The notes under the pieces are model-generated. The model did not search any database. It saw only the letters and a list, made by a program, of their open reading frames with translations, and had not been told where the DNA came from. DNA of 64,000 bases from a virus, in IMG/VR virus record IMGVR_UViG_3300047552_001147, positions 30,507-94,506 of that record. The stretch is one strand, 5' to 3'. A program made the translations under genes and the position numbers. Position 1 is the stretch's first letter; each line of letters begins with the position of its first letter. Shown here piece after piece: positions 4,865-63,570 of the stretch.

Positions 4865-4895
4865 ACTCATGGAGCAGTATTCCTACTCCATGAGT
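4865..4895 (-). terminator. terminator-like hairpin ending the 4916-10069 cluster
   Basis: Minus strand ACTCATGGAGTAG-GAATA-CTGCTCCATGAGT, 13-bp stem with one G-U, followed by a short T run. Confidence 0.6.
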
Positions 4896-4903
4896 CTTAT
4901 GCC
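4894..4903 (-). promoter_or_regulatory. putative phage promoter motif GGCATAAGAC
   Basis: One of 4 intergenic copies heading leftward units. Confidence 0.7.
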
Positions 4904-4915
4904 ACTTCAAGGGAG

Positions 4916-5434
4916 CTATTTTGCCTTCTTAGCTACGATCTTCTGGTAGTTTTCCCAGCCGACTTCCTTGGCTGTGAAGCAGTGCTTGATGACAGCCTCG
5001 AACATGGTCGCCGACGCGCGCTTGCCAGAAGCACGATCGATCCACTCAAGGAACTCTTCCGCAGCCACATTCTCGGCGCGGATCTTACCTTTCTTCTCTT
5101 CATCAGCCGTGAAGATCGGATCAGCATCCGGGTGACCTTCTAGCCACTCCAAACCCTTTGCGAACATGTTGCGGCAGGTCTGCTCATATGCTCCGCCGTA
5201 TCCTGAGATCTCGTCCATCTCTGGTGTGAAGACGTATTTGGTTCTGACCTGCTGGACATCAGGAATATCCACACTCAAGTCAGGACCATATACGTCATCA
5301 GCATCCATGACAATCTTCTTGACGCATGTCAAGCATGTCGGGATAGACTCTCCCTTCACTACAGCTGTGACACCATCAATACCTTCCACGAAAGACTTAC
5401 CGCAATCACAGACTTGGTTTCTTACTCCTGACAC
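4916..5434 (-). CDS. hypothetical protein
   Basis: ORF in a coupled leftward cluster; N-terminal CxC...CxxC. Confidence 0.7.
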   Translation of the reverse strand: MSGVRNQVCDCGKSFVEGIDGVTAVVKGESIPTCLTCVKKIVMDADDVYGPDLSVDIPDVQQVRTKYVFTPEMDEISGYGGAYEQTCRNMFAKGLEWLEGHPDADPIFTADEEKKGKIRAENVAAEEFLEWIDRASGKRASATMFEAVIKHCFTAKEVGWENYQKIVAKKAK

Positions 5435-5898
5435 TGTCTTCTTATCTCCTCGATTAGTTCTGCTAGTGAGTTAACCTGTCGGGCGCCGAAGAATTCAGCA
5501 GTGATGTCCACGTTGCCCTTCTTCCAGAATCCTTCTGGGCAACATAGTATAACACTGCTAGACTTGCGAGCGAGTGTAATGCCGAGCTCCATCATCGAGA
5601 TTGGCGATGTTGTGGCAGGATCGAAGTAGAACGCGACGATATCTGCTTGCTCTGCCAGGTGGGTAAGCTCCCAAGTGACCTGCTCTACGAATCGCTTATC
5701 TGTCCTATCCTGCCGCCAAGATGAGTCCCAATCCGGTCTTCTAGGATTGAAGATCATCAGGCCAGCAACATCAGCAAGAGCAGCAACTACTTTAGATTGC
5801 CACGGCTCTGCGTTGCCCATAGCAATGCTGCCAGCGAGGAATAGTGTCTTTTTGGCCTTCCACCACTCTGCGTAGTGCGGGGCAGTAACTTCTTTCAT
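5422..5898 (-). CDS. nucleoside 2-deoxyribosyltransferase-like protein
   Basis: LFLAGSI...WQ, IFNPRR.DW, QV.WE...L, FYF.P.T.SPIS..ELG motifs. Confidence 0.85.
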   Translation of the reverse strand: MKEVTAPHYAEWWKAKKTLFLAGSIAMGNAEPWQSKVVAALADVAGLMIFNPRRPDWDSSWRQDRTDKRFVEQVTWELTHLAEQADIVAFYFDPATTSPISMMELGITLARKSSSVILCCPEGFWKKGNVDITAEFFGARQVNSLAELIEEIRRQCQE

Positions 5899-6203
5899 TT
5901 TACTCCTAAGAGGTTCTCAACATCTACCAACGCATATCGAAGATTCTGGTAATCTGCTTCACTTTGATTGAAGTCCTGATAGCGGAATTTATCACACATT
6001 TTCACTAGGATCTTGGTGCGGGCACGTAGTTCCCGCTCCTTGTCAAACTCTTCCCAACTGAGTGATGGACCGTATGATCCTGCGCGGCAAGAACATGGTC
6101 GTGTTTTAGGCGGGCCATATAACCCGACACCAATGACCTCTCCGTCCTCTCTAGGTAGTGTGACGATACCGGTGTTATCACACACTAGGCATTTGTGCCC
6201 CAT
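5895..6203 (-). CDS. small Zn-finger hypothetical protein
   Basis: CLVCDNTG...PCSC; ATGA coupling. Confidence 0.7.
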   Translation of the reverse strand: MGHKCLVCDNTGIVTLPREDGEVIGVGLYGPPKTRPCSCRAGSYGPSLSWEEFDKERELRARTKILVKMCDKFRYQDFNQSEADYQNLRYALVDVENLLGVK

Positions 6204-6204
6204 A

Positions 6205-6549
6205 TTATTCCTTGGTTAGTAGCCCGTTTAGTAGTTCATGTGCGCGAGCGGGATCACGCTCTTGAATCTCCCGCGCCCCTCGCTGCACAAACAAGTTCAT
6301 AGTATCAGTTCGTGCTGACTTGTCTACTAGCTTGATGATCGATATCGCTGCCAATATGGAAGCTGTATCTAGTTTTGGCAGCTCAAGCTTTTGAAGGATC
6401 TGATCTCCTAGGCTGAAGTTGCACTCAGCCCATGTAGAGTCTAGGGCGCCAAGCAGCTGATCCATCGCTGCGAATGGTCGGCCATCCGCGAACTTGCGGT
6501 AGATGTCCGCAACAATGTCCTCAGCTAACAGATCACTGTATTCGTTCAT
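6205..6549 (-). CDS. hypothetical protein
   Basis: Start reassigned to the ATGA-coupled ATG at 6549. Confidence 0.65.
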   Translation of the reverse strand: MNEYSDLLAEDIVADIYRKFADGRPFAAMDQLLGALDSTWAECNFSLGDQILQKLELPKLDTASILAAISIIKLVDKSARTDTMNLFVQRGAREIQERDPARAHELLNGLLTKE

Positions 6550-6836
6550 AGTTGGAAGTCTTTCATTGCGTTCGCTATCCATGTTTCTTTATTTGGGTGG
6601 GTCTGTTTGAATAAGATGTGGTTGCCAATTGTGTGGGCAGCGGCTGCGTCCCAGCACTCCCGCAACATCCTGTTGACGGCCACCTGAACGGCGGCGCTTA
6701 TTTTACGCTCTTCCGGTGTCCGAGGATCGTGCTCTGCACAGTACAGTCTTCCATTGTACCGTATAGTGCCGGGATTCCTGCACTGGATGGAGGTGGCGCT
6801 GTAATCAAGCTTACAACAGAAATCGATTTTGTTCAT
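6546..6836 (-). CDS. hypothetical protein
   Basis: Coupled ORF; C...C...CAEH. Confidence 0.65.
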   Translation of the reverse strand: MNKIDFCCKLDYSATSIQCRNPGTIRYNGRLYCAEHDPRTPEERKISAAVQVAVNRMLRECWDAAAAHTIGNHILFKQTHPNKETWIANAMKDFQL

Positions 6837-7102
6837 TATACATCCTTTCCTTGTTCAAGGGCGCGGAGCTTGTCCTCCGCTGTATGCCACGCCCTGCTGA
6901 GGTAGTAAATATCTTGTCCCGTGTGGTCGACAGTCTCTATTGCTGCCTGCATAGCGCGTCTGGCCTTATGCGTCCTGATTGCTGCGTTGATGACCAGATC
7001 GGCCCTATCCAGATCCTCTGCCTCCTGCACGCTCAGGCTGGACAAGCGGCGATAGTAGGTGCGGGTCAATGCCACGGCTTCCTCAAACGTCATCGGCTTC
7101 AT
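6836..7102 (-). CDS. hypothetical protein
   Basis: GGAGG RBS and ATGA-coupled start MKPMTF. Confidence 0.65.
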   Translation of the reverse strand: MKPMTFEEAVALTRTYYRRLSSLSVQEAEDLDRADLVINAAIRTHKARRAMQAAIETVDHTGQDIYYLSRAWHTAEDKLRALEQGKDV

Positions 7103-7431
7103 GCGTCCTCCCCGCGTTCGAGGGCGCGAAGCTTCGCCAGCGACTCGAAGCACGCCTCAACACGCAGCAACCGCTCAGGTCTGTCCCCGCCCTCGTAATC
7201 GTCGAGGTAGCACCGCGCCTCATGCGCCTCTACCGCCGCGTCAACGATGGCGCGGGCGCGTTCCTTTGCTCTGTATTTGCCCTCTCGTTTCTTCTTCATC
7301 AAGGCCTCAGCCTGCTCGCGCGATATACCAGCTGGCGTAACAATGAAAACGTGCATACAGTACTTAGGATTTCGGTCAATTTCCACAGCCGTGCGTAAGT
7401 CCATCGGCGGGTGCTTCGGTTTGTCAGCCAC
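7099..7431 (-). CDS. hypothetical protein
   Basis: Coupled ORF; start uncertain (GTG 7431 or ATG 7404). Confidence 0.55.
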   Translation of the reverse strand: MADKPKHPPMDLRTAVEIDRNPKYCMHVFIVTPAGISREQAEALMKKKREGKYRAKERARAIVDAAVEAHEARCYLDDYEGGDRPERLLRVEACFESLAKLRALERGEDA

Positions 7432-7792
7432 TGGAAGACTTCTTTCTAGCTGCCTGTGCCGCCAAGTGAAGCTCCTTGAGGTTCGCTCCGTGATTCGCGT
7501 CATCGCCAGTTCCCCAGCAACGGTCGCACTCTGCATCGGTCATTGCTGATCCACCAACGCCTCCGAAGTATGTTGCCGTGCTAGAGTACGCGCGCCTTCC
7601 TGTTCCGGTGCAGACGCGGCACGGGTATTCACCAATTCCGCGCAAGTCCCAGAAGCGGTTCCAGAACTCGGCCTCGGGGTGGCCCTTTCCGAGTAGTTCG
7701 TCGCGGGTCAACATTGCTTTGCTGTTTGTCATACGATCACCGTCCCAGTAAACAGTCCTAAGACTACGGCTAAAAGCATAATCGTCCACCAA
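7424..7792 (-). CDS. DnaJ-type CxxCxGxG Zn-finger protein
   Basis: CRVCTGTG and CDRCWGTG; start uncertain. Confidence 0.65.
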   Translation of the reverse strand: MVDDYAFSRSLRTVYWDGDRMTNSKAMLTRDELLGKGHPEAEFWNRFWDLRGIGEYPCRVCTGTGRRAYSSTATYFGGVGGSAMTDAECDRCWGTGDDANHGANLKELHLAAQAARKKSSSG

Positions 7793-7798
7793 TCCAAT

Positions 7799-7990
7799 TC
7801 AGGGTCCTGTCGTTCCTTCATCGTCTTCCTCCTCTTCTCTACCGTATAGCGACCATTGCGCTATCTTCCGCAGAGCGCCGGTTAGTTCTACACAACCCAT
7901 TCCGCACACCGGGCAATTATCAGCCGCTCTAAATCGCTCACAATCGAAGCACCACTTGTAGTGCTGGTACTTAGGACCAGTGCTTGTCAT
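7799..7990 (-). CDS. small Zn-ribbon protein
   Basis: CFDC...CPVCG. Confidence 0.65.
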   Translation of the reverse strand: MTSTGPKYQHYKWCFDCERFRAADNCPVCGMGCVELTGALRKIAQWSLYGREEEEDDEGTTGP

Positions 7991-8153
7991 CGACGGCCTT
8001 CGTCAGTTTCTTGAGTAGGGTCTCCGCATGTTCCATTTCATTGGACGCGCGGTTACCCCACTCTATTTGACCTATTCTGACCTTAATTGTGCGAAGAAGC
8101 CACGAGGCCTGTTCGTCAGTCAATGATAGTGTAATCGGCTGGTCTTTGCTCAT
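7971..8153 (-). CDS. hypothetical protein
   Basis: GGAGG upstream of MSKDQP. Confidence 0.6.
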   Translation of the reverse strand: MSKDQPITLSLTDEQASWLLRTIKVRIGQIEWGNRASNEMEHAETLLKKLTKAVDDKHWS

Positions 8154-8155
8154 TA

Positions 8156-8359
8156 TCAGTCGTCCTCCTGTAAGTCGCACACGCCAGAGTCATCCACCCG
8201 TGTTTTATCCAACCAGGTGAAGTACTCATTTGTGTACTTCGTTGGCCGGTCCTTCAAAAGATTGCAGTGTCTCGTATCGCTCCACTGATCAGAATCGGTT
8301 ACGCTGTGCTTACAGGATGCGCATGTCTTCAAAACACGGTAGTTGTTCTTCCCAATCAT
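8156..8359 (-). CDS. small Cys-containing hypothetical protein
   Basis: CASCKH...C...C; ATGA coupling. Confidence 0.65.
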   Translation of the reverse strand: MIGKNNYRVLKTCASCKHSVTDSDQWSDTRHCNLLKDRPTKYTNEYFTWLDKTRVDDSGVCDLQEDD

Positions 8360-8658
8360 TGTTTTACCTTCTGGATTGTTTCAAGAAGATCCTGTGCTGT
8401 ACAACCTATGCACCAATGAGATTGTTCATTAGGGTAGCTTTCACGACAATCAGGGAGAGTATTGTGTAGCCCGATGTCACACTTAAACTGGCTGACGCGA
8501 ATCACCAATTGCTGGAGGTTTTGCTTTTGCTTCCGCAACTGCGCTACTTCTTTACCAGTCTCCGCCAACATATCTAGGGCCTCATGATATCGCCGCTCTT
8601 GCCATACGGGATTACATCGCCGCAGGAAAGAGCCGATTCTCCACCATAGCTTCTTCAT
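8356..8658 (-). CDS. hypothetical protein
   Basis: GGAGG RBS, ATGA coupling. Confidence 0.65.
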   Translation of the reverse strand: MKKLWWRIGSFLRRCNPVWQERRYHEALDMLAETGKEVAQLRKQKQNLQQLVIRVSQFKCDIGLHNTLPDCRESYPNEQSHWCIGCTAQDLLETIQKVKQ

Positions 8659-8882
8659 GTACCCTCCTTAGCTTGCTGAGCCAGTGCAAACTGCCAACTG
8701 CTTGTAGCGGTTAGCAGCTTATTGCGGGCGCTCAGGTATTCCGGTACATCACCACGCATAAAGGCACGTTGATACTCGTCCGCCGCCTTCACCACGCCCT
8801 CGGCGGCGAGGCGGACGGCGTCGTCTAGCTTGCGAAGTTCAGAGCGGTCGTACTCCTCGCGATCGTAATCGTAGTAGCTCAC
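8655..8882 (-). CDS. hypothetical protein
   Basis: GTGA coupling. Confidence 0.65.
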   Translation of the reverse strand: MSYYDYDREEYDRSELRKLDDAVRLAAEGVVKAADEYQRAFMRGDVPEYLSARNKLLTATSSWQFALAQQAKEGT

Positions 8883-9157
8883 GTTCCGATCTCCTTCTCG
8901 ACCGCCGCGAGGGCGTCCCTAAGTCTGAAGCAGTACACGCAATCACAGTTCTCGGAAGCCCGCTTACTTGCCTCCACCAGCCGCGCGACGGCATCGCTGC
9001 GCGCAGAGACGCGGCGGTTCCAGTTGTCCGCGCAGATCCACGTAATGTGGCCCTCGCACCCAGTGCTTGAGCAGCACGCCATCAGCCCGAATACGCGGTG
9101 TTCTTTGGAATCCGCTTTTGCGCCGCAGAACGGGCACGCCTTGAGTTCGCTCGTCAC
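8879..9157 (-). CDS. Lar-like restriction alleviation family Zn-ribbon protein
   Basis: ELKACPFCG...C...C...WNRR. Confidence 0.7.
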   Translation of the reverse strand: MTSELKACPFCGAKADSKEHRVFGLMACCSSTGCEGHITWICADNWNRRVSARSDAVARLVEASKRASENCDCVYCFRLRDALAAVEKEIGT

Positions 9158-9669
9158 GACTGCACCTCCTTATCAACGCGTAACTTCCTGATCCGATGAA
9201 GTAGGATCACAACAGCATCAACCGGATGGCTTTTGAAGCCTTCCCATCCGTTTGCTTGCATGTCCTTCTGAATTGTCTGGCTTTGGCCATACCACAGCTG
9301 CTCAGTCATTTTCAACTTCTTGATTTCCTCGGCATCAGCAGCAGCTTTATGCTTCAGCTCTGCAATCTCGTCATAGAGTGTCTCAATCCTGTGGTCAACC
9401 TCCGAAACATGCTGAGACGCGGTATCGTACCAAGATCTGAGCTTCTCAAGCTCCGCCCTATGCTCATCCCGCTCTCGCCGAGCAGATCTGACATCTTCCT
9501 TTGCTGCTTTTGTTTTAGCCTGTTCAGCTGACAGCAAATCCTGAATAGCGACAAAGACGTCCTTCACCAGGTAATCGCCGTAGTTATTGCGCATATGCCA
9601 CGAGCGTGACATATCGCAGGGAATATCCTTGAGAATCATCTCCAGGATCTCTTTGTGTGTTTTTTTCAT
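9154..9669 (-). CDS. coiled-coil hypothetical protein
   Basis: Start MKKTHK immediately after the upstream stop. Confidence 0.65.
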   Translation of the reverse strand: MKKTHKEILEMILKDIPCDMSRSWHMRNNYGDYLVKDVFVAIQDLLSAEQAKTKAAKEDVRSARRERDEHRAELEKLRSWYDTASQHVSEVDHRIETLYDEIAELKHKAAADAEEIKKLKMTEQLWYGQSQTIQKDMQANGWEGFKSHPVDAVVILLHRIRKLRVDKEVQS

Positions 9670-9670
9670 C

Positions 9671-10069
9671 TTAGTCCCATCCGTGGCAGCCGCAATAGAA
9701 GCGGTCATAGCCACGATCGCCTCTTGGTTTGTAGTTCGTACATACGCCTTGACATTGCTTGGTGTGAGCTACTTCAGCGTAACCACACCACTTGCACAGG
9801 TTTGCTTCCCACGTACCGTCTACACAAGATTCGAAGAACGGCAACGAGGAATCCGACGGTCGCTCACAGGTGCATATCGCGTGGTTGGACTGGCCATAGT
9901 TGCACTCATTACCACCGCCGTATGCACCATGTCTCGCGGTTTTGCCTCCATAATGGGAGCAGCGAGCCATTCTAACCGGTAGCGGCGCACCAGCCGAAAC
10001 TGATTCACACTTGTCTTCTAGATCAGCCATGTTTCTTACCCACTCCTCGCTGGGCCATTTAGGTTTCAT
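9671..10069 (-). CDS. Cys-rich hypothetical protein, first gene of the leftward cluster
   Basis: GGAG RBS; many Cys; ends DRFYCGCHGWD. Confidence 0.7.
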   Translation of the reverse strand: MKPKWPSEEWVRNMADLEDKCESVSAGAPLPVRMARCSHYGGKTARHGAYGGGNECNYGQSNHAICTCERPSDSSLPFFESCVDGTWEANLCKWCGYAEVAHTKQCQGVCTNYKPRGDRGYDRFYCGCHGWD

Positions 10070-10115
10070 TTTCAGGTACTCCAATTTGGTTGCTAAAACA
10101 ATAGGACAGGTTCGC

Positions 10116-10144
10116 TTGTCTTATGCCTCAATTCGGATCATAAT
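10116..10144 (+). promoter_or_regulatory. sigma70-like promoter for the RNAP operon
   Basis: TTGTCT-17nt-CATAAT, 7 nt before ATG 10152. Confidence 0.5.
10118..10127 (-). promoter_or_regulatory. putative phage promoter motif GGCATAAGAC
   Basis: Intergenic copy at a divergent junction. Confidence 0.7.
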
Positions 10145-10151
10145 TTGATGC

Positions 10152-10487
10152 ATGTCTAGTCCCACAAACCAGTTATCGCAGCGCGTTAAGGACGGTCTGG
10201 CGCAACGCCTGGCCGAGTATCCCGCTGTCCTGCGTACCCGGACCTTGGGGGATATTGCTTCAACCAAGATGCGTAGAATTGAGCTCTTGGATTTGAACAA
10301 AGAAGCCGACAGATGCCGATGGCAGCTTCTCCACAATGACCCAGAGCGATTTGAGGTTATTAGCGAGAAGGAATCTCATCAAAAGCAAGAGTATTTTGTT
10401 CGAATCATTTACAACGAGCTGGGCGACGACCAGTCAGTCGTAAAAACTAAGGAAGAGCTGCGATCCGAAGAAACCGGATCAGTTTAG
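10152..10487 (+). CDS. hypothetical protein upstream of RNAP
   Basis: First gene of the rightward unit; stops 2 nt before the RNAP ATG. Confidence 0.75.
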   Translation: MSSPTNQLSQRVKDGLAQRLAEYPAVLRTRTLGDIASTKMRRIELLDLNKEADRCRWQLLHNDPERFEVISEKESHQKQEYFVRIIYNELGDDQSVVKTKEELRSEETGSV

Positions 10488-10489: not shown

Positions 10490-13400
10490 ATGCTAGATCA
10501 TCAAAAATCCTTCGAGTCTGCGATTGTTCTTGCCGAGAAGATCGTCAAAGAAGCCTTCCCGATTGTCGGCAAACACCACACGGTTCAGGCCAGCAACTTC
10601 CGCTGGCAGGGTGTTGGGTCATCTGTATCATACGACATTGCCGCCCAAAAGAAAGCCAAGCTAGAAGACAAGTCGCTTCTCGCTACCCTCCTGGCCGATG
10701 TCCAGGTAGTTGACAAGACCGGCAAAGTGCTGGATCAGCGAGACGGCCACATCGTCCTCCAGATCCCACACATCACCTCTAGAGCTTCGTACATCCTGCA
10801 AGGGACGGAGCGCCAGGTCATCAACCAGCTTAGATTGCGCCCAGGTATTTACGCCGACTTCACGCCGGACAACAACATCAAGGTGCGCATCAACACGTCA
10901 GCCGCAGGCACCTACGCTGTCCTTCTGGACAGAGAGAGCCTGATAATGACGTTTAGGGTTGGCACCTCGACCAACTTCCCAATCATCTCAGTTTTGAAGG
11001 TATTGGGCCTGAACGAGGTTGAGATCCGCCAGCTGCTGGGAGACAAGATCTTCGCGGTAAACCAGAAGAAGTCTAAGCCTGATATGGATGCGCTGAAGCT
11101 GATCAAGAAGCTCCGCCCATACCACGCCACAGCCAACGTAGACGACGCTAAGAAGATGGTCGTTGACTTCCTGGCATCAAAGCCGCTGGACCCGGAAGTT
11201 AACAAGGTAACGATTGGCAAGCCGATTGATAAGGTGGACCAGTCAGCAGTTGTTGAGTGTGTGCGCAAGGCAATTTCTCTTGCCACTGGTGCCTCTGAGC
11301 CGGATGACGTCGAATCGTTAGCGTTCAAGTCGATCCTATCATTTGACGACTTCGTGGCCGAGAGACTGCTAAAGGCCATCCCCGATATCAAGCGTAAGGT
11401 TGCGTCACTGGTTGATAGAAAGCCGCAGGTGCTGTTTGCCTTGCCGCCGTCAATGTTCACAGACACTATTGACAACTTCTTCAACAAGTCTGAGTTCACG
11501 CGACACGCTGACCAGAACAACCCGATTGACATTGCCGCCGTCAACTCCCTTGTCACTACGATGGGTGAGGGCGGTATCAAGAGCACGTACGCGGTGACTG
11601 ACGAGGTCCGCACGATTCACCCGTCGCACTTAGGTATCCTCGACGTGGCGCACACCTCAGAAGGTGGCAACATCGGTATTACCAACCACCTGTCGCTGGG
11701 AGCGAAGAAGATTGGCAGTGCTTTGGGCATGTCTGTCTATGACGCCCGCACAGGTAAAAGAGAAGACCACACAATCCAGGCGCTCGTTAACAAGACCATC
11801 GCATACCCGGACCAGTATGATAACCTTGGCAAGGGGATCCCGAAGCCCAGGGGTAAGGAGATCAAGGTAAGGGCTGGCAGCTCTTTCAAGGTCGTGTCTC
11901 CTAAAGAGGTAGACTACGTTTTTACGACGCCCGACTCCTTCTTCTCGTCAACAACCTCCGCTATCCCCTTCCTGCCGAACAACCACGTTAACCGCGTGTT
12001 GATGGGTGATAAGCACATTGAGCAGGCAGTTAATCTGACGAACCCCGATAAGCCGTTGGTCATGCACGAGATGACCAGTGGCCCGGATGCCCCTAAGAAG
12101 ATCTCGGCGGGCTACGAAGAGCTGTTCGGTCAGATGTTCAACATCAAGTCACCGGTCAAGGGCAAGGTCACGAAGGTGACTGCCGACGCTATCTACATCA
12201 AGCCTACAACAGGCAAGGCGGTTCCGGTAGCTATCCACAATAACTACCCGCTGAACTCGCACACGTTCTTCCACGACACGCCCAGCGTTAAGGTCGGCGA
12301 TCGCGTCAAAGAGGGTCAACCGCTGGCTGAGAGTAACTTCACCAAGGACAATGTCCTGGCTCTCGGTAAGAACCTGAGAGTAGCGTATACCGCATACAAG
12401 GGGTATAACTTCGAGGACGGTGTTGTTATCTCCGAAGCGGCTGCTCAAAAGCTCACATCTACCCACAAGCACGAGTACCGTGTTGACGTAGATAAGAACA
12501 CTAAGACTGGCGCAGACATCTTCTTTGCCGCCTTCCCGCAAGACCTTAAGTACCTGCGCGAGCTGAAAGAGCGCTACGACTCTGACGGTATCATCAAGAA
12601 GGGCATCAAGGTAGAGCCCGGCGATATCCTTATCCCGGCGTTCCAACAGATCCCGCTGCACGCGGAGTTCGACTACAAGAGACTCGGTAAGAAGCTCGGT
12701 GATAGAGCTATCGACATCTCTCAGCGGTGGGACGGCCTAGGTCCCGCTGAAGTTATTGACGTTGTCAAGTCCAGATCGTTCATCAAGGTCTTCCTAAAGT
12801 CGGAAGAGCCTATGAAGATCGGCGACAAGATCAGTATGCGTCACGGCGGTAAGGGTATCATTACCCACATCGTCCCAGACGATCAGATGTACAAGGACGA
12901 GTCGGGCAACATCGTTGACGTGCTTTTGAACCCTCTCGGTGTGCCTAGCCGTGTCAACACTGGCCAGCTGTTTGAGACAGCGGCAGGTAAGCTAGCACAG
13001 AAGACCGGTAAGCCGTACTATACGAAGAACTTCAACGAGACGCACGGCAATACCCTAGGGAAGCTGAAGAGCGACCTCGCTGCTGCCGGTGTTAAGGATG
13101 CTGAGACCCTAACTGATCCTGTGACTGGTCGCAAGCTGCCCGAGACCCTCGTAGGCATCACGCATATCTACAAGCTTAAGCATCAGGTTGACACGAAGTT
13201 CAAGGCTCGTGGCGCAACTGATGAGAGCTTCACTCTTGATGAGCAGCCGGCAAAAACTGACGAATCGTCCGCACAACGTATCGGTATGCTCGACACGTTC
13301 TCGCTGCTCTCCGGCGATGCAACGCACTTCCTGAACGACGCCTACGGTATCAAGTCACAGAAGAACGACGAGTATTGGGTTGCCCTGCAACGCGGGGTCA

Positions 13401-16400
13401 TGCCTCCGCCTCCAAAGGTACCGTTCATTACAGAACGCTTCGTGACGATGTTGCTTGGTGCGGGAATCAACCTTCGCCAGGAAGGTAGCAAGCTAACCGC
13501 TGCCCCGCTCACCGACAGTCAGATCAAGAACATGTCGCACGGTGAGATCGATAAGCCGCTAGTGGTTAAGTCTACCAACCTGATGCCTGAGAAGGGCGGG
13601 CTCTTTGACCCCGTCAAGACTGGCGGTATCGGCGGTAACCGGTTCAATCACATTGAACTTGTGACACCTATCCCTAACCCGTTGATGCTGGACGCGATCA
13701 CGTCCGTCGCACGTCTTCCAAAGACTGATATCCTTACACAGATCATTGATGGTAACCTCGCTGTCAATGATCAAGGTGAGGTTGTTAAGGACTTGAACGA
13801 CGGAGCCAGCTTCGGTAACGGCGTGATCAATCTACTCAAGAACATTGACGTTGAGAAGGAGATCACACGCACACAGGCGGAGATCAAGACGTCTAAGGCG
13901 GATAAGCTCAACGCAGCATATCGCCGACTCAAGTATCTGCGTGCTTTGAAAGAGCTTAAGCTAAAGCCGGTAGATGCCTACACAAACAAGTTCGTTCCGA
14001 TCATTCCGGCGAAGTTCAGAAATGTTCAGCCAAGAACTGACGGGTCGCTAAACGTGGCTGATGCAAACTTCGGCTATCGCGAAGTGATCATGATCAACAA
14101 CCAGCTGAAGAAGCTGTCGACTGCCGGAATCTCGCAAGATAACCTCAAGACGCTGAACCGTGACCTGTTCCGGGCCGTGTCTGGTATTACTGGTGTGACT
14201 GCCCCTCTAACGAGAGCGGCGGACGTTTCCGGCTTCATTGAGAAAATCAAAGGACCTAGCCCGAAGATGGGCTTCTTCCAGTCTAGAGTACTAACCAGAG
14301 CGCAAGATCTGTCAGCGCGTTCTACAGTTATCCCTAACCCCAAGCTTGGGCTGGACGAGATCGGTCTACCGTCTGAGATGGCGCTAACGATCTACAAGCC
14401 CTTTGTTGTGAAGCGTCTAGTTGGTCTTGGATATGATCCGCTACGCGCCAGAGATATGGTTGAGAAGCGAGACGAGCTCGCAATCCGCGCGCTGCAGTCG
14501 GAGATCGAAGATCGTCCGGCGATCATGAACAGAGCGCCGTCTCTGCATAAGTTCAACCTACAAGCATTTAAGCCGCGTCTAATTGAAGGTAGAGCGGTAG
14601 AAGTCAACCCGCTGATCGTTGCGGGATACAACATGGACTTCGACGGCGATACAGCTGGTATCCACGTCCCCGTGTCTGAGGATGCGCGCAAAGAGGCCTG
14701 GGATAAGTTGATGCCTAGCCGCAACCTGTTTGCTACTAGAGAGGACTCGGTTATTCACGCCCCCTCAAGAGAAACGGTTCACGGCCTGTATCTGATGACA
14801 ACGCCCAAGGGCACGCCCGTACCTGTGAAGTCGGTCAAAGAACTGATGGACATGTACAAGGACGGGAAGATCGAGGTAAACGCAGCGGTCACTGTTGGCG
14901 GTCAAGTGCAATGTGCTGGGCAGTACTTAGTTGATGCGCTAATACCGGATCAAATCAAGCTCGGCCCTGTACAGATCACATCGAAGAACCTCAAGGATCT
15001 TCTGATCAGTGTTGCTAAGACACAAGAGTCTAACAAGGCTGGCGAGATCATCTCCAAACTGAAAGACCTTGGTAACCACTACGTCACGCACGTCGGCTTC
15101 TCGATTTCACTCAACGACCTGGAGATTGATAGAGGTCTACGCGACGACATCATGACCAAGGCTAAGCAGCGCATCAAGGAAGTCGGCTTCAATACCGCTG
15201 CCAACGAGGCGTCTAAAGGTGTCAAGGATCTGGTCAGTAAGACCAAAGACAACCGGTTCGTAGAGGTTTCGGTAACATCCGGCGCCCTAGGAAAGCTCGA
15301 CTCTCTCGCACAGATGGTCGGGTCGCCAGTCGCTGTTGAGGACCACAAAGGCCGCGTCGTTCCCATGCTGATCGAGAAGTCGTATGCAGAAGGACACGAC
15401 CTAGGATCGTATTTGGCAACAGCCCCCGGTGCTCGTAAAGGCCTGGTAGATAAGGGCTTATCGGTAGGTGAGACAGGTTACTTCAACAAGAAGCTTGTGA
15501 ACACCACGATCGAGTATAAGATTGTCTCGCCTGATTGTAAGACAACGATCGGCATCGATATGCCGCTTTCATCGAGTGATATCTACGATAGGTTTGTGGC
15601 CGCCGGTCCTTACCGCAATAAGCAGTTGACTCCCGAGTTCGTAAGACAGCTAACAGCGAAGGGGAAGACGAAGATTCTTGTTCGTTCCCCAATGACATGT
15701 GCCGCAATCGGTGGCCTGTGTCAGAAGTGCTTCGGCCTCGACTCCAGCGGAAAGCTTCCGCCGATTGGATCACATATCGGAGCTCTCGCTGGCCAGACGC
15801 TAGGAGAACGTGCAACGCAAACAACGCTGAAAGCCTTCCACACCGGCGGTACTATCGGCGGACCTAAGCTAGGATTTGATCGCATCTCCGAGATCGTGGA
15901 GATGCCTGAAACGATTAAGAACAAAGCCACGCTGGCATCTGTTTCTGGAGCAGTCAGTAAAATAGAAGAAACGCCAACAGGCGGTTGGTTCGTTTATGTG
16001 AAGGACACCAAGCACTTCGTTCCGAAAGAACTCGGATTAGGGGTTAAGCTGCGACAAGTAGTTAAGGCTGGCGATAAGCTTAGCCAAGGAGGCACAATCA
16101 AGCCTCAAGAGCTACTTGAATACACAGGCAGCATTAACACTGTCCGCAATTATCTAGTGAACGAGCTGGCGCAAAGCTACAGCAAAGAGCAAGGTGCTTA
16201 CATCAAACGAAAGCTACTAGAAACTGTTGTTCGTCCATTAACTGACAAGGCCCAGGTAACAGATGCTGGCGGGGCACTCAACAAGTTCAACGTGTATCCT
16301 GGAGATGTTCTCTCTGTCAACCTGATTAAGGACTACAATAAGCAGCTGAGAGTTTCCAAGCAACCAGAGATCAAGTTCGAGCCGATGCTGCTTGGAATCA

Positions 16401-16579
16401 ATAACGCACCTTATCACAGCCAGGACTTCATTGGTCCGCTATCTCACGAGCGGTTGAAGCAGACGATCGTGCGGGCACCGCAGTTCGGCATGTCAACCGA
16501 CATCGAGAAGGGTCACCCGATGGCCCAGCTGGCCCTGAAGAACCTAAGAGACATCGAAAGTACCAGAGCTAGAACGTGA
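10490..16579 (+). CDS. rpoBC: fused beta-beta' DNA-directed RNA polymerase (phage-encoded)
   Basis: beta motifs DQNNP, GYNFEDG, GDKISMRHGGKG, NPLGVPSR, KLKHQV; beta' motifs NRAPSLH, NMDFDGD, GARKGL, GERATQ..LKAFHTGG, all in one frame. Confidence 0.95.
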   Translation: MLDHQKSFESAIVLAEKIVKEAFPIVGKHHTVQASNFRWQGVGSSVSYDIAAQKKAKLEDKSLLATLLADVQVVDKTGKVLDQRDGHIVLQIPHITSRASYILQGTERQVINQLRLRPGIYADFTPDNNIKVRINTSAAGTYAVLLDRESLIMTFRVGTSTNFPIISVLKVLGLNEVEIRQLLGDKIFAVNQKKSKPDMDALKLIKKLRPYHATANVDDAKKMVVDFLASKPLDPEVNKVTIGKPIDKVDQSAVVECVRKAISLATGASEPDDVESLAFKSILSFDDFVAERLLKAIPDIKRKVASLVDRKPQVLFALPPSMFTDTIDNFFNKSEFTRHADQNNPIDIAAVNSLVTTMGEGGIKSTYAVTDEVRTIHPSHLGILDVAHTSEGGNIGITNHLSLGAKKIGSALGMSVYDARTGKREDHTIQALVNKTIAYPDQYDNLGKGIPKPRGKEIKVRAGSSFKVVSPKEVDYVFTTPDSFFSSTTSAIPFLPNNHVNRVLMGDKHIEQAVNLTNPDKPLVMHEMTSGPDAPKKISAGYEELFGQMFNIKSPVKGKVTKVTADAIYIKPTTGKAVPVAIHNNYPLNSHTFFHDTPSVKVGDRVKEGQPLAESNFTKDNVLALGKNLRVAYTAYKGYNFEDGVVISEAAAQKLTSTHKHEYRVDVDKNTKTGADIFFAAFPQDLKYLRELKERYDSDGIIKKGIKVEPGDILIPAFQQIPLHAEFDYKRLGKKLGDRAIDISQRWDGLGPAEVIDVVKSRSFIKVFLKSEEPMKIGDKISMRHGGKGIITHIVPDDQMYKDESGNIVDVLLNPLGVPSRVNTGQLFETAAGKLAQKTGKPYYTKNFNETHGNTLGKLKSDLAAAGVKDAETLTDPVTGRKLPETLVGITHIYKLKHQVDTKFKARGATDESFTLDEQPAKTDESSAQRIGMLDTFSLLSGDATHFLNDAYGIKSQKNDEYWVALQRGVMPPPPKVPFITERFVTMLLGAGINLRQEGSKLTAAPLTDSQIKNMSHGEIDKPLVVKSTNLMPEKGGLFDPVKTGGIGGNRFNHIELVTPIPNPLMLDAITSVARLPKTDILTQIIDGNLAVNDQGEVVKDLNDGASFGNGVINLLKNIDVEKEITRTQAEIKTSKADKLNAAYRRLKYLRALKELKLKPVDAYTNKFVPIIPAKFRNVQPRTDGSLNVADANFGYREVIMINNQLKKLSTAGISQDNLKTLNRDLFRAVSGITGVTAPLTRAADVSGFIEKIKGPSPKMGFFQSRVLTRAQDLSARSTVIPNPKLGLDEIGLPSEMALTIYKPFVVKRLVGLGYDPLRARDMVEKRDELAIRALQSEIEDRPAIMNRAPSLHKFNLQAFKPRLIEGRAVEVNPLIVAGYNMDFDGDTAGIHVPVSEDARKEAWDKLMPSRNLFATREDSVIHAPSRETVHGLYLMTTPKGTPVPVKSVKELMDMYKDGKIEVNAAVTVGGQVQCAGQYLVDALIPDQIKLGPVQITSKNLKDLLISVAKTQESNKAGEIISKLKDLGNHYVTHVGFSISLNDLEIDRGLRDDIMTKAKQRIKEVGFNTAANEASKGVKDLVSKTKDNRFVEVSVTSGALGKLDSLAQMVGSPVAVEDHKGRVVPMLIEKSYAEGHDLGSYLATAPGARKGLVDKGLSVGETGYFNKKLVNTTIEYKIVSPDCKTTIGIDMPLSSSDIYDRFVAAGPYRNKQLTPEFVRQLTAKGKTKILVRSPMTCAAIGGLCQKCFGLDSSGKLPPIGSHIGALAGQTLGERATQTTLKAFHTGGTIGGPKLGFDRISEIVEMPETIKNKATLASVSGAVSKIEETPTGGWFVYVKDTKHFVPKELGLGVKLRQVVKAGDKLSQGGTIKPQELLEYTGSINTVRNYLVNELAQSYSKEQGAYIKRKLLETVVRPLTDKAQVTDAGGALNKFNVYPGDVLSVNLIKDYNKQLRVSKQPEIKFEPMLLGINNAPYHSQDFIGPLSHERLKQTIVRAPQFGMSTDIEKGHPMAQLALKNLRDIESTRART

Positions 16580-17754: not shown

Positions 17755-18047
17755 TGAATCTATCAAAAGTAGGCGATATCGGCGAGGGTGTCTGCCCTAA
17801 CCACAAATCCGCCCAGGCGTATACCACTGTTTTTCAGACAGGCGCCCCGTCAGTGCTGATTAACGGCCAACCCGCTGCTACCGTCGAAACAGTGGGTATT
17901 GCGACCTGCGGACACCCAACAGTGGCCCTAACAGGCAGCGCAACCGTGTTTATTGAGGGGAAACCGGCCCACCGAGTGGGGGACACTGGGGCGAACTACG
18001 GACCATATACGGCGGTATCTGGCTCTGGGAACGTTATACTTGGTTGA
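17754..18047 (+). CDS. PAAR spike-tip protein
   Basis: VLINGQPAATV, VFIEGKPAHRVGD, GSGNVILG. Confidence 0.9.
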   Translation: MNLSKVGDIGEGVCPNHKSAQAYTTVFQTGAPSVLINGQPAATVETVGIATCGHPTVALTGSATVFIEGKPAHRVGDTGANYGPYTAVSGSGNVILG

Positions 18048-28257: not shown

Positions 28258-28453
28258 TGTGTCTCCCTTGTGGTTGGTTGTAGCCCAGAGCGAACGCCGC
28301 CGACAGCAACGACATCGTTGCCGGACTGATCGGTTTACGCTCCTTGATTGCTTCGCTGAACTGTTCGCGCTCCAGCCGCGCCTGTTCTTTGGCTAGCTGG
28401 CGGGCGATCTTGCGCTTTTCCTTGTCGCCACCGTGCTTGTAATCAATAGTCAT
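28241..28453 (-). CDS. hypothetical protein
   Basis: AAGGA RBS before MTIDYK. Confidence 0.55.
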   Translation of the reverse strand: MTIDYKHGGDKEKRKIARQLAKEQARLEREQFSEAIKERKPISPATMSLLSAAFALGYNQPQGRHNGKPL

Positions 28454-28661
28454 TGTAGTCCTTCTGCTCAAGTTTTACGGATAGCTGCTCAATCGACGAT
28501 TTGATCAGCGCGTCGTACTCGTGAAAAAACGCTTGGTGAAGGGCCAGTGCCAGCGCCGCTTGTGACGGCACTGGCTGACCAGCCTTCTTCAATCTTCTTA
28601 TGACCTTTTTCGCGCAATCTATTGCGTTGTGGCCAGGCCGCTGGTTCTTGCGTTTTACCAT
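28443..28661 (-). CDS. hypothetical protein
   Basis: Overlapping cluster ORF. Confidence 0.55.
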   Translation of the reverse strand: MVKRKNQRPGHNAIDCAKKVIRRLKKAGQPVPSQAALALALHQAFFHEYDALIKSSIEQLSVKLEQKDYNDY

Positions 28662-31819: not shown

Positions 31820-31859
31820 GTGATGTGCTCCTTAAAAGCAGAAAGTGTTCGGGATCTAA

Positions 31860-31869
31860 GTCTTATGCC
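31860..31869 (-). promoter_or_regulatory. putative phage promoter motif GGCATAAGAC
   Basis: Intergenic copy at a divergent junction. Confidence 0.7.
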
Positions 31870-31898
31870 ATATTTGATCAGTTTATTAGTTGTGCAGT

Positions 31899-31969
31899 CG
31901 CTTTTTGACGGTATCCTGAATTAGATCAGGATCTTTTTTTGTGATCCGCTCATTACGGATCAAAAAGCG
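31899..31969. other. nested inverted-repeat element
   Basis: Outer CGCTTTTTGA/TCAAAAAGCG; inner ATCCTGA/TCAGGAT and TGATCCG/CGGATCA. Confidence 0.65.
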
Positions 31970-31975
31970 CTTTCT

Positions 31976-46691: not shown

Positions 46692-47398
46692 GTCATCTCA
46701 TTTGGATGGCAGATCTCTCTAAGACCATAGATTCGCTGCCGCAATAAGGCGTTAAGGTGTACATTCTGTACTTCACTCTTAAACGGAGCACTCCTTTTCA
46801 GGATATACAACGCTGGCCGATATTCTCCGAACGCTTCCTTGTAACGGATGATCCGTCGTTCCACATCATCAAGCAAGAAGAAACCGGCGGACAGGATGAC
46901 TATCTTACACTGAATCCTATCGATTCTCAGTGCGTGAATAGGTTGTTGCTGTACAGGTAGGTTGAAGAGATCGTCACGAGCGTTATCGACATCGTGGGAT
47001 GTGAAGACATGCCCGAGCTCTTTACTGTACGCATCCAGGACCTGCTTTACTAAGCCAGTGAGAGGCTTACGGAATTCCCTGAACAGGAAGATGATCGCCG
47101 AGTTACTAGACGCAAGTGAGTGCACCCCTGAATTTCGGCGGCGCATGAGATTCATCACATTGAGATACTGGTACCGGTTGCTCGCCGGTTCTCCGCCGTA
47201 TGCCTCAGCCATCACCTCGTTTCTTGCATGAATGTATTCTAGGCCGCGATCCCGCTGCTGAAGAAATTCGCTGCGCGTTCTATTAGACTCCTGCAACACC
47301 TGCGAGAAGATGTAGTTGTGTTCGGAGGAGGATTGAATCAGTTGGCCAATCTCTTCGAGAGTGCTGTGTAGTTCCTGGTAAGGGGCGTGTTCAGTCAT
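46673..47398 (-). CDS. hypothetical protein downstream of the sigma factor
   Basis: Overlaps the sigma stop; last gene of the unit. Confidence 0.7.
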   Translation of the reverse strand: MTEHAPYQELHSTLEEIGQLIQSSSEHNYIFSQVLQESNRTRSEFLQQRDRGLEYIHARNEVMAEAYGGEPASNRYQYLNVMNLMRRRNSGVHSLASSNSAIIFLFREFRKPLTGLVKQVLDAYSKELGHVFTSHDVDNARDDLFNLPVQQQPIHALRIDRIQCKIVILSAGFFLLDDVERRIIRYKEAFGEYRPALYILKRSAPFKSEVQNVHLNALLRQRIYGLREICHPNEMTKNQGQ

Positions 47399-48224
47399 TG
47401 TGATCCGCTAACAGCGGTTCATTTTTCAAGGCTACCCACAGTTTTCGTAGCCCGTCATTCTCTAGTTGCCTAATTCGCTCACGAGTGAATCTGTAGAACT
47501 GTGCGAGATCATCGTATGTTTCTGTGTCTTGGTAGCCAAGACCGTAGTGTCTACGAATGATGTCTTCCAGCTCTGGTGGCAATTTGGCTAGCGCCTCGGA
47601 CAGCTTCTGAGATGTTTCATTCTCAAGCATCTCATCGAATACCGCCCTATCTTCGTCGATGATTAACGGATCGTTCTTCAGCTGCCCCATTTCTGACGCA
47701 GTCTCGATGTTCTCAAGCGGAATGATCTGCCGCTCAGAATCTTCAAGATACTGGATGATGGTAGTATCGTCCCACTCCAGCGCAATGAACACTTCTTCCT
47801 GAGAAGGCCGCTGACCGTTCTGCAAATGAAGCTGCTTGGCCATGGCCCGGTACTTAGTATGCAGTACCTTGTGCTGGTGGATCTTCGGCTGGATCGCGTG
47901 AAGCTCCTTACGGATCCTTGCTTGAATCCACCACACAGCGTAAGTAGAGAACCGGTTCTTCTTCGATACCTTGAAGTCGTCGATGGCTTTCATTAGACCA
48001 AGTGTCCCTGCGGACACCAGGTCCATCGCCTTTGCATCGTTAGAGTCAACGAACCTCAAGACGCAGCTCAGCACTAGCCGCATGTTGTGAGTGATGAACA
48101 GGTCTCTTGCGGCGATATCTCCTTTCTTGATCTTACGGAGAAGCTTGCGCTCCTCCTTAGCGTCAAAGTGGGAGAACGTTCTGAACTGATTATAGTACGC
48201 CTGAAATTCGGACTCTTGTTTCAT
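47391..48224 (-). CDS. sigma70-family RNA polymerase sigma factor
   Basis: Region 1.2/2.1 EERKL...ARDLFITHNMRLV; 2.2-2.4 GLMKAIDDF...RFSTYAVWWI; 4.2 TRERIRQLE. Confidence 0.92.
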   Translation of the reverse strand: MKQESEFQAYYNQFRTFSHFDAKEERKLLRKIKKGDIAARDLFITHNMRLVLSCVLRFVDSNDAKAMDLVSAGTLGLMKAIDDFKVSKKNRFSTYAVWWIQARIRKELHAIQPKIHQHKVLHTKYRAMAKQLHLQNGQRPSQEEVFIALEWDDTTIIQYLEDSERQIIPLENIETASEMGQLKNDPLIIDEDRAVFDEMLENETSQKLSEALAKLPPELEDIIRRHYGLGYQDTETYDDLAQFYRFTRERIRQLENDGLRKLWVALKNEPLLADHND

Positions 48225-61329: not shown

Positions 61330-61334
61330 GTAGC

Positions 61335-61553
61335 TTACTTGAGGGTCAGAATTACTGACATCTCGCGGAAGGGTTTATCGTCCGCGTTAACAAGATCATA
61401 GGGAAGCAGACGTTGTGTTTTCGAGTGCGTGTACGCCACATCGAATTCAGTGATCTGGCGGAGAGTTTCCTCTCCGGCCAGTTTCACATACACAGGAAAG
61501 TGAGGCTTGATGATCTTAGACGTCAGTTCCTCGACGAGTTCTTCGGCGTTCAT
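61335..61553 (-). CDS. hypothetical protein
   Basis: TAATG coupling. Confidence 0.65.
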   Translation of the reverse strand: MNAEELVEELTSKIIKPHFPVYVKLAGEETLRQITEFDVAYTHSKTQRLLPYDLVNADDKPFREMSVILTLK

Positions 61554-62551
61554 TACTCCGCGTCCTCCGTGACGTCGTTATCGTCACCTTCGAGCGGATT
61601 GCCGACCATGATCTCGTCCAGATCTTCCAGACCAGTCTTCTTCGTATCACTCAAGACTTTGATACCCAGGCCAATCTTGGGAGCCGTGTTAACCGGCGCT
61701 GCCGTGGTCGGAGCAGCCGGCGCTGCCGTTGTTGATGCACCACACACCGCCACAATACCATCCTCTTCATAGGTCAGGATAGGGTTCTTCTGTTGAGAAC
61801 CATCGTTGAACTTGTCGCTGATGCGTCTATGCGTGCGCAGAACGTTGACGACTTCCGAGTCTTCCAGGATAGGATAGCCAGCATCGAAGTCGATCGCGTT
61901 TGCGGCGATCATCATATCCTCATCAATATCAGTGGCGGCAAAGTGTTCCTTGTATGTCCACGAGTCGCCAATCTTGACCGACTTCTCGCTGCCAGAACGT
62001 GACACCGAGAATGCGCCATAGCACACGCTCTTGCCGCTGACTTCTGACGTTGCTGCCAACTGCTGAATCACGTTGCTATTGCTGGGGATGACGATCGATC
62101 TGACTGCCCAAGGAATGTCGCGCCCATCCTTAGTCTTGAACGGCGTGAGGTCCACGATCTTGGCGACAGCCACCAGCTTCGGCCCACGACCTAACGCCTT
62201 TGCGAACAAGCACTTACGACCAGAGCGGATCTGCTCGCCGTCCGGTGAGATACCGATGAGATCCGTTGAACGGAACGATTCGATAACCGGGTAGCGGCCC
62301 TTCGGACCCTTCTTCTCGCCAATAGCGACATCGAAGACAGGGATCCAGGTGACGTCAGTCAGAAAGACGATCGTAGTCGTCTTGTTATTCGGCAGTCTGA
62401 ACGGGAGGCCACCACGGGCCTTCCACATGTTCGAGATCAACTGATTGCCCGTATTGGGCTGCTTCACCAGTTCAGAGTCCTTCAGGACAGTGAACGCTCT
62501 CAAATTGCCTACAGCGGTCTTGTTCGTGTGTACTTTGTCTGCTAGTCCCAT
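61553..62551 (-). CDS. putative single-stranded DNA-binding protein
   Basis: Between primase and polA; acidic C-terminal tail; flexible AP linker. Confidence 0.55.
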   Translation of the reverse strand: MGLADKVHTNKTAVGNLRAFTVLKDSELVKQPNTGNQLISNMWKARGGLPFRLPNNKTTTIVFLTDVTWIPVFDVAIGEKKGPKGRYPVIESFRSTDLIGISPDGEQIRSGRKCLFAKALGRGPKLVAVAKIVDLTPFKTKDGRDIPWAVRSIVIPSNSNVIQQLAATSEVSGKSVCYGAFSVSRSGSEKSVKIGDSWTYKEHFAATDIDEDMMIAANAIDFDAGYPILEDSEVVNVLRTHRRISDKFNDGSQQKNPILTYEEDGIVAVCGASTTAAPAAPTTAAPVNTAPKIGLGIKVLSDTKKTGLEDLDEIMVGNPLEGDDNDVTEDAE

Positions 62552-63543
62552 TTTTGTTTTTCCAGTAAGAAGTGTTGGAGGTCGAGTTTTGATAGATATT
62601 TTGGATCGACTTCCGGGGTTCTGACAATATGCTGAATTCCGTATCTAGTCAAGGTTTTCTTTATGACCTCAGCAGCGTTTTTCGCTGGCTGATCTGGGTC
62701 TAAGAGAAGGATAACATATCGAGCGTTTGCTGCTTGGAGTTTTAGGACTTTTTTCTCTTGCAGTCCTAAACCCATTAGTGCCAACGACCTATAGCCTTCC
62801 TGAACCACGTGCATTGCGTCGAGAGGACCTTCGACGATAAAAATGGGCTGGTCTTTTCGCAGATCCATCATCTGCTCTGCGAAGAAGAACCCTATGCCTT
62901 TGAATGGGAGCAGCGCAAAGTACTTCGGCCCCTTCTTCTCGCTGTCAACCGATCTCGCCTGAGCTCCGACGCACTTAAAAGAACCATCGGGCATTTTGGA
63001 GAAGACGGGGAAGATGATCAGATCGTCTCTAGTTCGCAACTCCGAGCCGTCTGGCATGTCGATCGTTGTACCTTCGGGAGCATAGGCGCACTTGAACGCT
63101 GTAGCCGTCTTTACGTCAACTCCCTTAGCGTTAAGGAACTCGATCGCTTTTTCGGACCACGGATTCAGGTACAATTCAGATATGATAGAAGTGTAGTCTG
63201 TGACAGGAATATTGGTTTCTGATTTGATCATATTGATTGGTCGTATATCCCGAGCGTTCTCAATTCTCTGCGCTTCGAGGGCCAGAGCAGCGTAACCACC
63301 GAGTTCTGTGTTGAGTTCTAAGAGCATGTTAACCAGGGGTTTCTTGTATCCACAACTCCAGCAGTGGACGAAGGAGAGACCGTCTGAAATACTAACTGTC
63401 ATCGAAGGATGTGAATCAGTTCCGCTCTTGTGTCTGAGCGCGGCCACGGCACAAGGTATGGCTAAAAAACCACTGCCACTGCTGCCCACTTTCTCGACAT
63501 CCGGTAGTTGGCTAAGAATTGATCTCAAAGCCTCTTCCTGCAT
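62542..63543 (-). CDS. DNA primase (Zn-binding domain plus TOPRIM)
   Basis: C...H...DSHPS...HCWSC; IVEGPLDA; LLDPD; ATG 63543 after AAAGGAAG. Confidence 0.85.
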   Translation of the reverse strand: MQEEALRSILSQLPDVEKVGSSGSGFLAIPCAVAALRHKSGTDSHPSMTVSISDGLSFVHCWSCGYKKPLVNMLLELNTELGGYAALALEAQRIENARDIRPINMIKSETNIPVTDYTSIISELYLNPWSEKAIEFLNAKGVDVKTATAFKCAYAPEGTTIDMPDGSELRTRDDLIIFPVFSKMPDGSFKCVGAQARSVDSEKKGPKYFALLPFKGIGFFFAEQMMDLRKDQPIFIVEGPLDAMHVVQEGYRSLALMGLGLQEKKVLKLQAANARYVILLLDPDQPAKNAAEVIKKTLTRYGIQHIVRTPEVDPKYLSKLDLQHFLLEKQKWD

Positions 63544-63560
63544 GACACTTCCTTTCACCT

Positions 63561-63570
63561 GTCTTATGAC
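63561..63570 (-). promoter_or_regulatory. putative phage promoter motif GTCATAAGAC
   Basis: Intergenic copy heading the replication operon. Confidence 0.7.

Follow-up and report, generated by a model that had tools for sequence, protein, structure and literature searches.

An extended -10-like signal, very probably a phage promoter, recurs in phages that encode a bacterial-type RNA polymerase

The multisubunit RNA polymerases known from phages come without sigma homologues, and the large phages known to encode sigma factors come without polymerases (PMC7824862, PMC13282480). Phages phiKZ and AR9 package and inject a multisubunit-type polymerase that reads many near-identical early promoters; the enzyme is divided into four to five very divergent pieces and has no sigma-70-family protein beside it (PMC7598289, PMC13282480). 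Purified virions of the cultured Salmonella phage Arash contain abundant gp206 and gp216, which are polymerase subunits, and abundant sigma factor gp10 (PMC10585845). The authors of that study offer early transcription and carry-over as explanations of the virion polymerase and sigma, and their paper makes no mention of promoters or of a motif (PMC10585845). Here we analyze a 64,000-nucleotide stretch of DNA (the window), the right-hand 64 kb of the 94.5-kb viral contig IMGVR_UViG_3300047552_001147 from IMG/VR (record positions 30,507 to 94,506; the completeness estimate of the contig is 49%). A short signal built around GKCATAAGAC heads leftward transcription units in the window, and we argue that it represents a phage-specific promoter class shared with Arash.

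A sequence-only reading of the window had reported four minus-strand copies of a 10-bp motif, and all four are present at the coordinates it gave (cores in Table 1). Exact GKCATAAGAC occurs four times in the window, always on the minus strand. We estimated the chance expectation for this count from dinucleotide shuffles of the window (n = 100). The shuffles contained 0.27 copies per window on average, which agrees with the earlier claim of fewer than one, and 0 of 100 reached four. Also as claimed, each copy is intergenic and precedes the first start codon of a unit. We find this start to be an ATG with a Shine-Dalgarno (SD) sequence, at distances of 55, 48, 40 and 17 nt for copies 1 to 4. The motif had further been said to head every leftward unit. 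This holds for the four leftward blocks of the window (4838 to 4374, 10069 to 4916, 31819 to 23199 and 63543 to 46673), but plus-strand copies occur as well, in the contig and in relatives. Copy 1 lies 12 nt past the stop codon of the upstream gene and heads a single-gene cassette, and copy 2 stands back-to-back with the RNA polymerase operon. The unit behind copy 3 contains small genes, PRPP synthetase and NAMPT. Copy 4, which is 15 nt from the ATG of a divergent plus-strand gene, heads a replication unit that encodes primase, DNA polymerase, helicase, UvsX, a kinase, RuvC and a sigma factor. Across the whole contig, the exact motif occurs seven times, each time on the minus strand, and GKCATAAGAY occurs 12 times (11 minus, one plus) where 0.66 would be expected. 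The motif was the top enriched 8-mer of upstream regions, and no second motif stood out in this enrichment analysis.

Table 1. Predicted promoter copies and associated features, in window positions. Scores are from the weight matrix.
Feature	Position	Strand	Notes
Predicted promoter copy 1	4888..4924	-	core GGCATAAGAC at 4903-4894, then N3-TG; score 21.9
Predicted promoter copy 2	10112..10148	-	core GGCATAAGAC at 10127-10118; score 20.3
Predicted promoter copy 3	31854..31890	-	core GGCATAAGAC at 31869-31860; score 14.0, without downstream TG
Predicted promoter copy 4	63555..63591	-	core GTCATAAGAC at 63570-63561; score 22.2
Probable internal promoter copy	28589..28625	-	core GTCATAAGAA at 28604-28595, then gat-TG-A; score 20.5
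Terminator hairpin	4855..4896	-	14-bp stem and U-run; -23.1 kcal/mol, z = -6.1
Single-chain beta-beta' RNA polymerase	10490..16579	+	2029 amino acids; candidate reading enzyme; in an operon with PAAR and large terminase subunit genes
Sigma factor s1	47391..48224	-	277 amino acids; RpoS/RpoD-like, regions 1.2 to 4; second-to-last gene of the copy-4 unit

The conserved signal proved longer than the 10 bp first described. Alignment of the sites gave an extended element that begins with (C)AAA(W) about 16-17 nt upstream, continues with t-G-K-C-A-T-A-A-G-A-Y and ends with N3-T-G-A. The upstream A-tract is weak, with A at two positions about 17 nt upstream in 10 of 12 sites, and the T-G, followed by A or the other purine, begins at the fourth base past the 10-mer. 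We scanned the contig with a weight matrix that spans the core and the downstream part, with true sites at 14 or above and background at 11.2 or below for the 94.5-kb contig. The scan separated 13 sites (scores 14.0-24.9) cleanly from all other positions. All 13 sites aim at the next open reading frame, and most have an SD and start codon within 16-55 nt. Five of them fall in the window, and four of these five carry the full GKYATRAG-N5-TG, copy 3 being the one with a core and no TG. When one mismatch from the 10-mer was allowed, extra matches in the window were merely at chance level; the two 9/10 matches lie at 28595-28604 and 57488-57497. The former, which the sequence-only reading had noted as a match inside a gene, is present but does not look like a random intragenic copy. 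It lies within a 72-amino-acid open reading frame (28443-28661), yet upstream of an in-frame GTG with an SD. Because its matrix score is inside the range of true sites, this copy is probably a working internal promoter.

We compared the contig (G000) with five uncultured relative records, taken whole (G001-G005). No near-identical phage records were found, and nine IMG/VR loci carry a polymerase 45-69% identical to that of this phage; gene order and orientation are conserved among the relatives. Counts across phages used the clade pattern GKYATRAG-N5-TG. In four of the five uncultured relatives (48-63% guanine plus cytosine, GC) it is enriched and runs in the same direction as the genes. The contig itself has nine copies against 0.85 expected, G002 nine against 0.45 and G005 five against 0.45. 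In G001, a complete genome of 193 kb and 63% GC, 1.3 copies are expected and 18 occur, 16 of these on a single strand. The exact 10-mer occurs 0-1 times per record in the relatives, and relaxed patterns revealed lineage variants in its place: GKCATAAGAT with a clear extended consensus in G002 and G005, GKCATRAGTC-N3-TG in G001, GKCATAAGAA in G003 and GTCATAAGTA in G004. The relatives carry some plus-strand copies, which always aim at the next gene. Positions 6995-7031 of G002 hold two opposite-strand copies (CTTATGAC ... GTCATAAG) that are perfectly inverted about a short T/A run and look like divergent promoters set back-to-back.

A related signal is present in two cultured phages. By tblastn, the polymerase of this phage has counterparts about 28-31% identical to it in Vibrio phage D69 and Salmonella phage Arash. 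The C-containing pattern had no match in Arash, and k-mer counting identified GGTATAAGTA as the commonest 10-mer of that genome. Arash (OQ632216.1) contains about 31 minus-strand copies of tGGTATAAG-N5-TG(TA) (GGTATAAG-N5-TG) upstream of an SD and ATG. D69 (OZ195729.1) contains 14 copies of GKYATAAG-N5-TG (GTTATAAG-N5-TG), 13 of them on one strand, versus two for a control pattern. The repeats of both phages share with the signal described here the core, the N5-TG spacing, the strand bias and the position before an SD and ATG, and both phages likewise encode a bacterial-type polymerase. They differ in the third base, which is T in Arash and D69 and C in the lineage of this phage, and in the polymerase, which is split into two genes there and is a single chain here. 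Judged by sequence, the signal is a clade-wide class of the form G-K-Y-A-T-R-A-G-N5-T-G. The only canonical plus-strand copy in Arash (11588-11602) stands directly before gp9 and gp10, and its conserved TG overlaps the ATG annotated for gp9. This arrangement suggests either a leaderless message or a sigma operon under this promoter class.

The surroundings of the copies resemble those of promoters. Several copies come straight after a terminator hairpin and U-run, and in G002 and G005 the order terminator, A-tract, core, TGA, SD recurs cassette after cassette. In divergent pairs, 15-33 bp lie between the motif and the ATG of the opposite gene, which makes a separate promoter upstream of the motif unlikely. 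A footprint is visible where the divergent region ahead of the polymerase operon has its orthologue in G002: the motif (copy 2 in this phage) is kept in both, the flanks have diverged, and the genes downstream of the orthologous copy are not homologous. We weighed these features against the possibility that the motif is not a promoter at all and acts as an RNA-level processing or protein-binding site in 5' leaders, or as a DNA operator. A leader element would suit the transcribed-strand orientation ahead of start codons and the stem-loops that often come after the motif. It would leave these units with no other conserved upstream promoter element, however, and with no space for one in the divergent regions, and it fits poorly with the copies that directly follow terminators. 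Motif and start codon are anywhere from 16 to more than 100 nt apart, the motif lacks palindromic symmetry, and searches for Rfam families and tRNAs found none. We regard a non-promoter role as extremely improbable and conclude that the motif is very probably a promoter. The sequence-only reading had proposed a phage-specific one, a view supported by placement, orientation, footprint, chance-level sigma-70 matches, and conservation across GC contents and hosts.

The strong terminator at copy 1 would help to position the presumed transcription start. Its 5' arm starts inside the last three bases of the promoter core, and an RNA starting at the conserved TG would lack both the U-run beside the stem and the stem's outer 6 bp. 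Such a layout would block transcripts arriving from upstream and spare the promoter's own transcript, and the overlap would place the start near the conserved TG. The earliest SD, at some sites in the relatives, begins 14 nt after the first G of the motif, which sets the same bound. The conserved T-G sits 6-7 nt past the hexamer, where the SD positions permit a start, and in the Arash register the T-G at 6-7 nt downstream fits a start with a pyrimidine at -1 and a purine at +1. We infer that transcription starts at or beside the conserved T-G, 6-7 nt downstream.

The extended -10 element of sigma-70-family promoters reads TGnTATAAT; two of its bases matter most to sigma-70, T at -7 being one of them. 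We assumed the register of a bacterial promoter for the motif, t(-15) G(-14) K C(-12) A(-11) T A A G(-7). In this assumed register, A at -11, the fourth base of the core, is present in 36 of 36 uncultured-phage sites and 36 of 36 Arash sites. G at -14 is invariant, and T at -15 occurs in 19 of 36 sites in each set. The Arash element TGGTATAAG corresponds to TGnTATAAT with G at -7. The signal shares with extended -10 promoters the invariant G at -14 and A at -11, a single strong element about 7-16 nt before the presumed start, independence from a TTGACA -35 and a pyrimidine-purine step at start distance. It differs in having G for T at -7, C for T at -12 and a partly conserved T at -15, and its conservation is much stricter than that of host promoters; a phage holoenzyme probably reads it. 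No motif site was called with a TTGACA-like -35 at 16-18 bp spacing, and the absence of such an element at the four window copies, asserted by the sequence-only reading, is borne out, with just a weak CAAAW tract upstream. That reading had proposed recognition by the phage RNA polymerase. The geometry points away from a sigma-free polymerase signal and toward a sigma-dependent extended -10 look-alike that carries G at -7; position -12 is C in this phage. We also considered sigma-54, whose -24/-12 consensus has an invariant GG and GC 10 nt apart (TGGCAC-N5-TTGC), and rejected it: the second G of the motif is G or T equally, and the TG lies 2 nt too far away with no C after it.

The resemblance raises the question of whether the host sigma-70 holoenzyme could read the motif as an unusually uniform extended -10 promoter. 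The string tGnYATAAG does match TGnTATAAT at four to five of six hexamer positions plus the G of the TG, and the host holoenzyme serves the early genes of many phages. G at -7, where sigma-70 needs T, is invariant in every copy examined, in eight phages, however, and the same signal is found in Salmonella and Vibrio phages and in phages of unknown host at 48-63% GC. Ordinary sigma-70-type promoters are not enriched either: none of the four copies was called as one, and consensus matches in window positions 1-60000 ran at chance (15 observed versus 13.4 expected, 8 versus 10.7 and 15 versus 14.9). We consider reading by the host sigma-70 holoenzyme very unlikely.

The polymerase of this phage is the candidate reading enzyme. 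It is far nearer to bacterial beta/beta' than to phiKZ-type enzymes (E about 1e-50 over 300 amino acids), and it keeps a beta' clamp-helix segment and a divergent flap-tip segment, which we take to be the two sigma docking sites. Every genome with the motif also has a bacterial-type phage polymerase, and there is one per genome; no other RNA polymerase was found in the complete 193-kb G001. One possibility is that this enzyme recognizes the motif with no sigma-70-family factor, either directly or through an unrelated subunit such as gp68 of phiKZ or gp226 of AR9. The phage multisubunit polymerases already characterized work without sigma (PMC13282480), and a sigma does not typically recognize G at -7 or C at -12. 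What makes this route quite unlikely is that the polymerase is much closer to the bacterial enzymes than phiKZ-type polymerases are, that all genomes checked for sigma encode at least one, that one sigma accompanies the polymerase in Arash virions, and that extended -10 geometry fits the signal, above all TGGTATAAG in Arash. The early promoters of phiKZ and AR9 are AT-rich and unrelated in sequence to this motif. The system described here would resemble theirs in its many near-identical promoters and, by analogy, in a packaged and injected polymerase. Assignment to the phiKZ/AR9-type class is ruled out by the single near-bacterial chain and the sigma genes (PMC13282480).

We identified two classes of sigma-70-family factor. 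The first, s1, shares 30-35% of its residues with bacterial RpoS/RpoD across regions 1.2 to 4; region 4.2 retains TRERIRQ, and region 2.4 is altered. Orthologues of s1 are present in G005, G001 and G003. The second class, s2, is found in G001 (104938-105711, plus strand, the structural strand) and in G003, and shows a significant region-3 match, a weak region 2 and a non-canonical region 4. Reciprocal BLAST paired s2 with Arash gp10 and s1 with Arash gp196, and Arash resembles the clade in having orthologues of both classes. Each genome checked (G000, G001, G003, G005 and Arash) encodes one or more sigma-70-family factors, with two in G001, G003 and Arash. By synteny with G001, s2 of this phage would lie past the right end of the contig. 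This little-studied lineage joins a near-bacterial RNA polymerase with its own sigmas, a combination absent from the reviewed cases (PMC7824862, PMC13282480).

These sigma factors could in principle direct the host enzyme. The T4 late promoters (TATAAATA) are read by gp55 and gp33 with host core. Like them, the signal described here is a short, highly conserved, -10-only and phage-specific element read via a phage sigma-like factor, if our assignment is correct; the T4 sequence is different, the promoters serve late structural genes, and they depend on the host core and a sliding-clamp activator. A corresponding scheme for this phage, with s1 or s2 on host core RNA polymerase as in T4, SPO1 and phiEco32, would leave the phage polymerase to serve other genes. 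It accords with the sigma-like promoter geometry, the similarity of s1 to RpoS/RpoD with its canonical region 4.2, and the normal use of host core by sigma-encoding large phages (PMC7824862, PMC13282480). It does not explain why the motif is always accompanied by a bacterial-type phage polymerase, why polymerase and gp10 occur together in Arash virions, or why the signal is unchanged in very different hosts. We therefore regard the use of host core as unlikely.

We favor the explanation that the signal is a clade-wide promoter class whose reader is the phage's own polymerase together with a phage sigma, and consider it reasonably probable on the sequence evidence. The sigma would be s1 or s2. 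s1 may read this promoter class; it more likely reads late promoters instead, and it may be a product of motif-driven units rather than their reader. Going by the example of Arash, the polymerase and s2 are probably packaged and injected; the promoters would then be early or middle ones, a timing also suggested by gene content and by the virion proteomics of a distant cultured relative. More tentatively, and with somewhat less than even confidence, we propose a private two-sigma cascade on a virion-borne viral core, independent of the host polymerase. By analogy with Arash, the virion would carry the beta-beta' core and the divergent sigma s2 (gp10 of Arash) and inject both. On the simplest model of the combined evidence, the injected core with the s2-type sigma would read GKYATAAG promoters and thereby turn on the non-structural units, s1 included. 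s1, with its canonical -35-reading helix, would then activate the few long structural operons (late, rightward). G at -7 would re-tune the extended -10-type signal in such a way that the host holoenzyme ignores these promoters.

Several observations weigh against reading by a phage holoenzyme of this kind. A look-up of RNA runs matching window positions 4300-10400 gave none. Virion packaging is known in Arash only, whose polymerase is about 30% identical to the enzyme here and is encoded by two genes (PMC10585845). s2 is absent from this 49%-complete contig and from the G002, G004 and G005 fragments, and a search for it in closer relatives of this phage found none. s1 sits in a motif-driven unit, and as the reader it would need another source of s1. 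The signal itself departs from the usual requirements of the sigma-70 family at -7 (G) and -12 (C), and just about half of the sites have the T of the extended TG. The weak upstream A-tract stands at a shifted position in G001. Finally, enrichment is weak in G003 (five copies versus 1.2 expected) and G004 (two versus 0.5).

The distribution of the signal separates two sets of genes. Leftward motif-headed units encode a Toprim primase, DNA polymerase, helicase, UvsX-like recombinase, nucleotide kinase and RuvC, together with NAMPT, PRPP synthetase, a sigma factor and many small proteins without known function. Rightward operons encode the fused beta-beta' RNA polymerase, a PAAR protein, the large terminase subunit, a protease-like protein and a major-head-like protein, and no motif copies were found in these structural or late operons. 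This distribution supports the view that the signal drives non-structural genes, namely small cassettes and genes for nicotinamide adenine dinucleotide salvage and for replication and recombination.

Phage-specific promoters are a known kind of element. This class is undescribed in the literature we searched, as the sequence-only reading had suspected, and a full-text search for the motif strings returned unrelated primers only. The consensus lets an early/middle regulon be annotated in uncultured relatives and provides a template for in vitro transcription. Because the signal is present in the cultured phages Arash and D69, the question of its reader is open to direct bench work. The single-base differences among lineages (T or C at -12, with an invariant G at -7) amount to a natural experiment on sigma-promoter specificity.

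The rightward operons have features of their own. The PAAR-motif protein (17754-18047, plus strand) is encoded two genes past the RNA polymerase, in the same operon as the large terminase (21180-23000). This context fits a polymerase that is made late and maybe packaged. An element TTGTCT-N17-CATAAT lies at 10116-10144 (plus strand), 7 nt before ATG 10152, where the polymerase operon's first gene starts without an SD. Both hexamers are conserved in G002, and the -35 overlaps the reverse complement of the leftward motif. The element may be a late s1-type promoter of a leaderless or near-leaderless mRNA; as a single case, it is compatible with the assignment of s1 to late genes. A search for a late promoter class of the rightward operons gave suggestive items only, and GGATCAWAA, which occurs near two operon starts, was not enriched.

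Two further sequence features were recorded. The commonest 9-mers of the contig, TTTTTGATG with 11 copies and TTTTGATGA with 13, are unrelated to the A-tract of the promoter; they appear to reflect a repeated N-terminal peptide tag, F-F-D-E (for example window 2022-2201 and 40374). At the head of the second rightward operon (31880-31975, plus strand; ATG 31976, no SD) there is a conserved block, GTATCCTnAnTnAGATC, which belongs to an inverted repeat. The equivalent region of G005 (about 13240-13331) keeps GTATCCTnAnTnAGATC, and both phages have GGATCA(A/T)AA shortly before the ATG. This block may be an operator or a late promoter.

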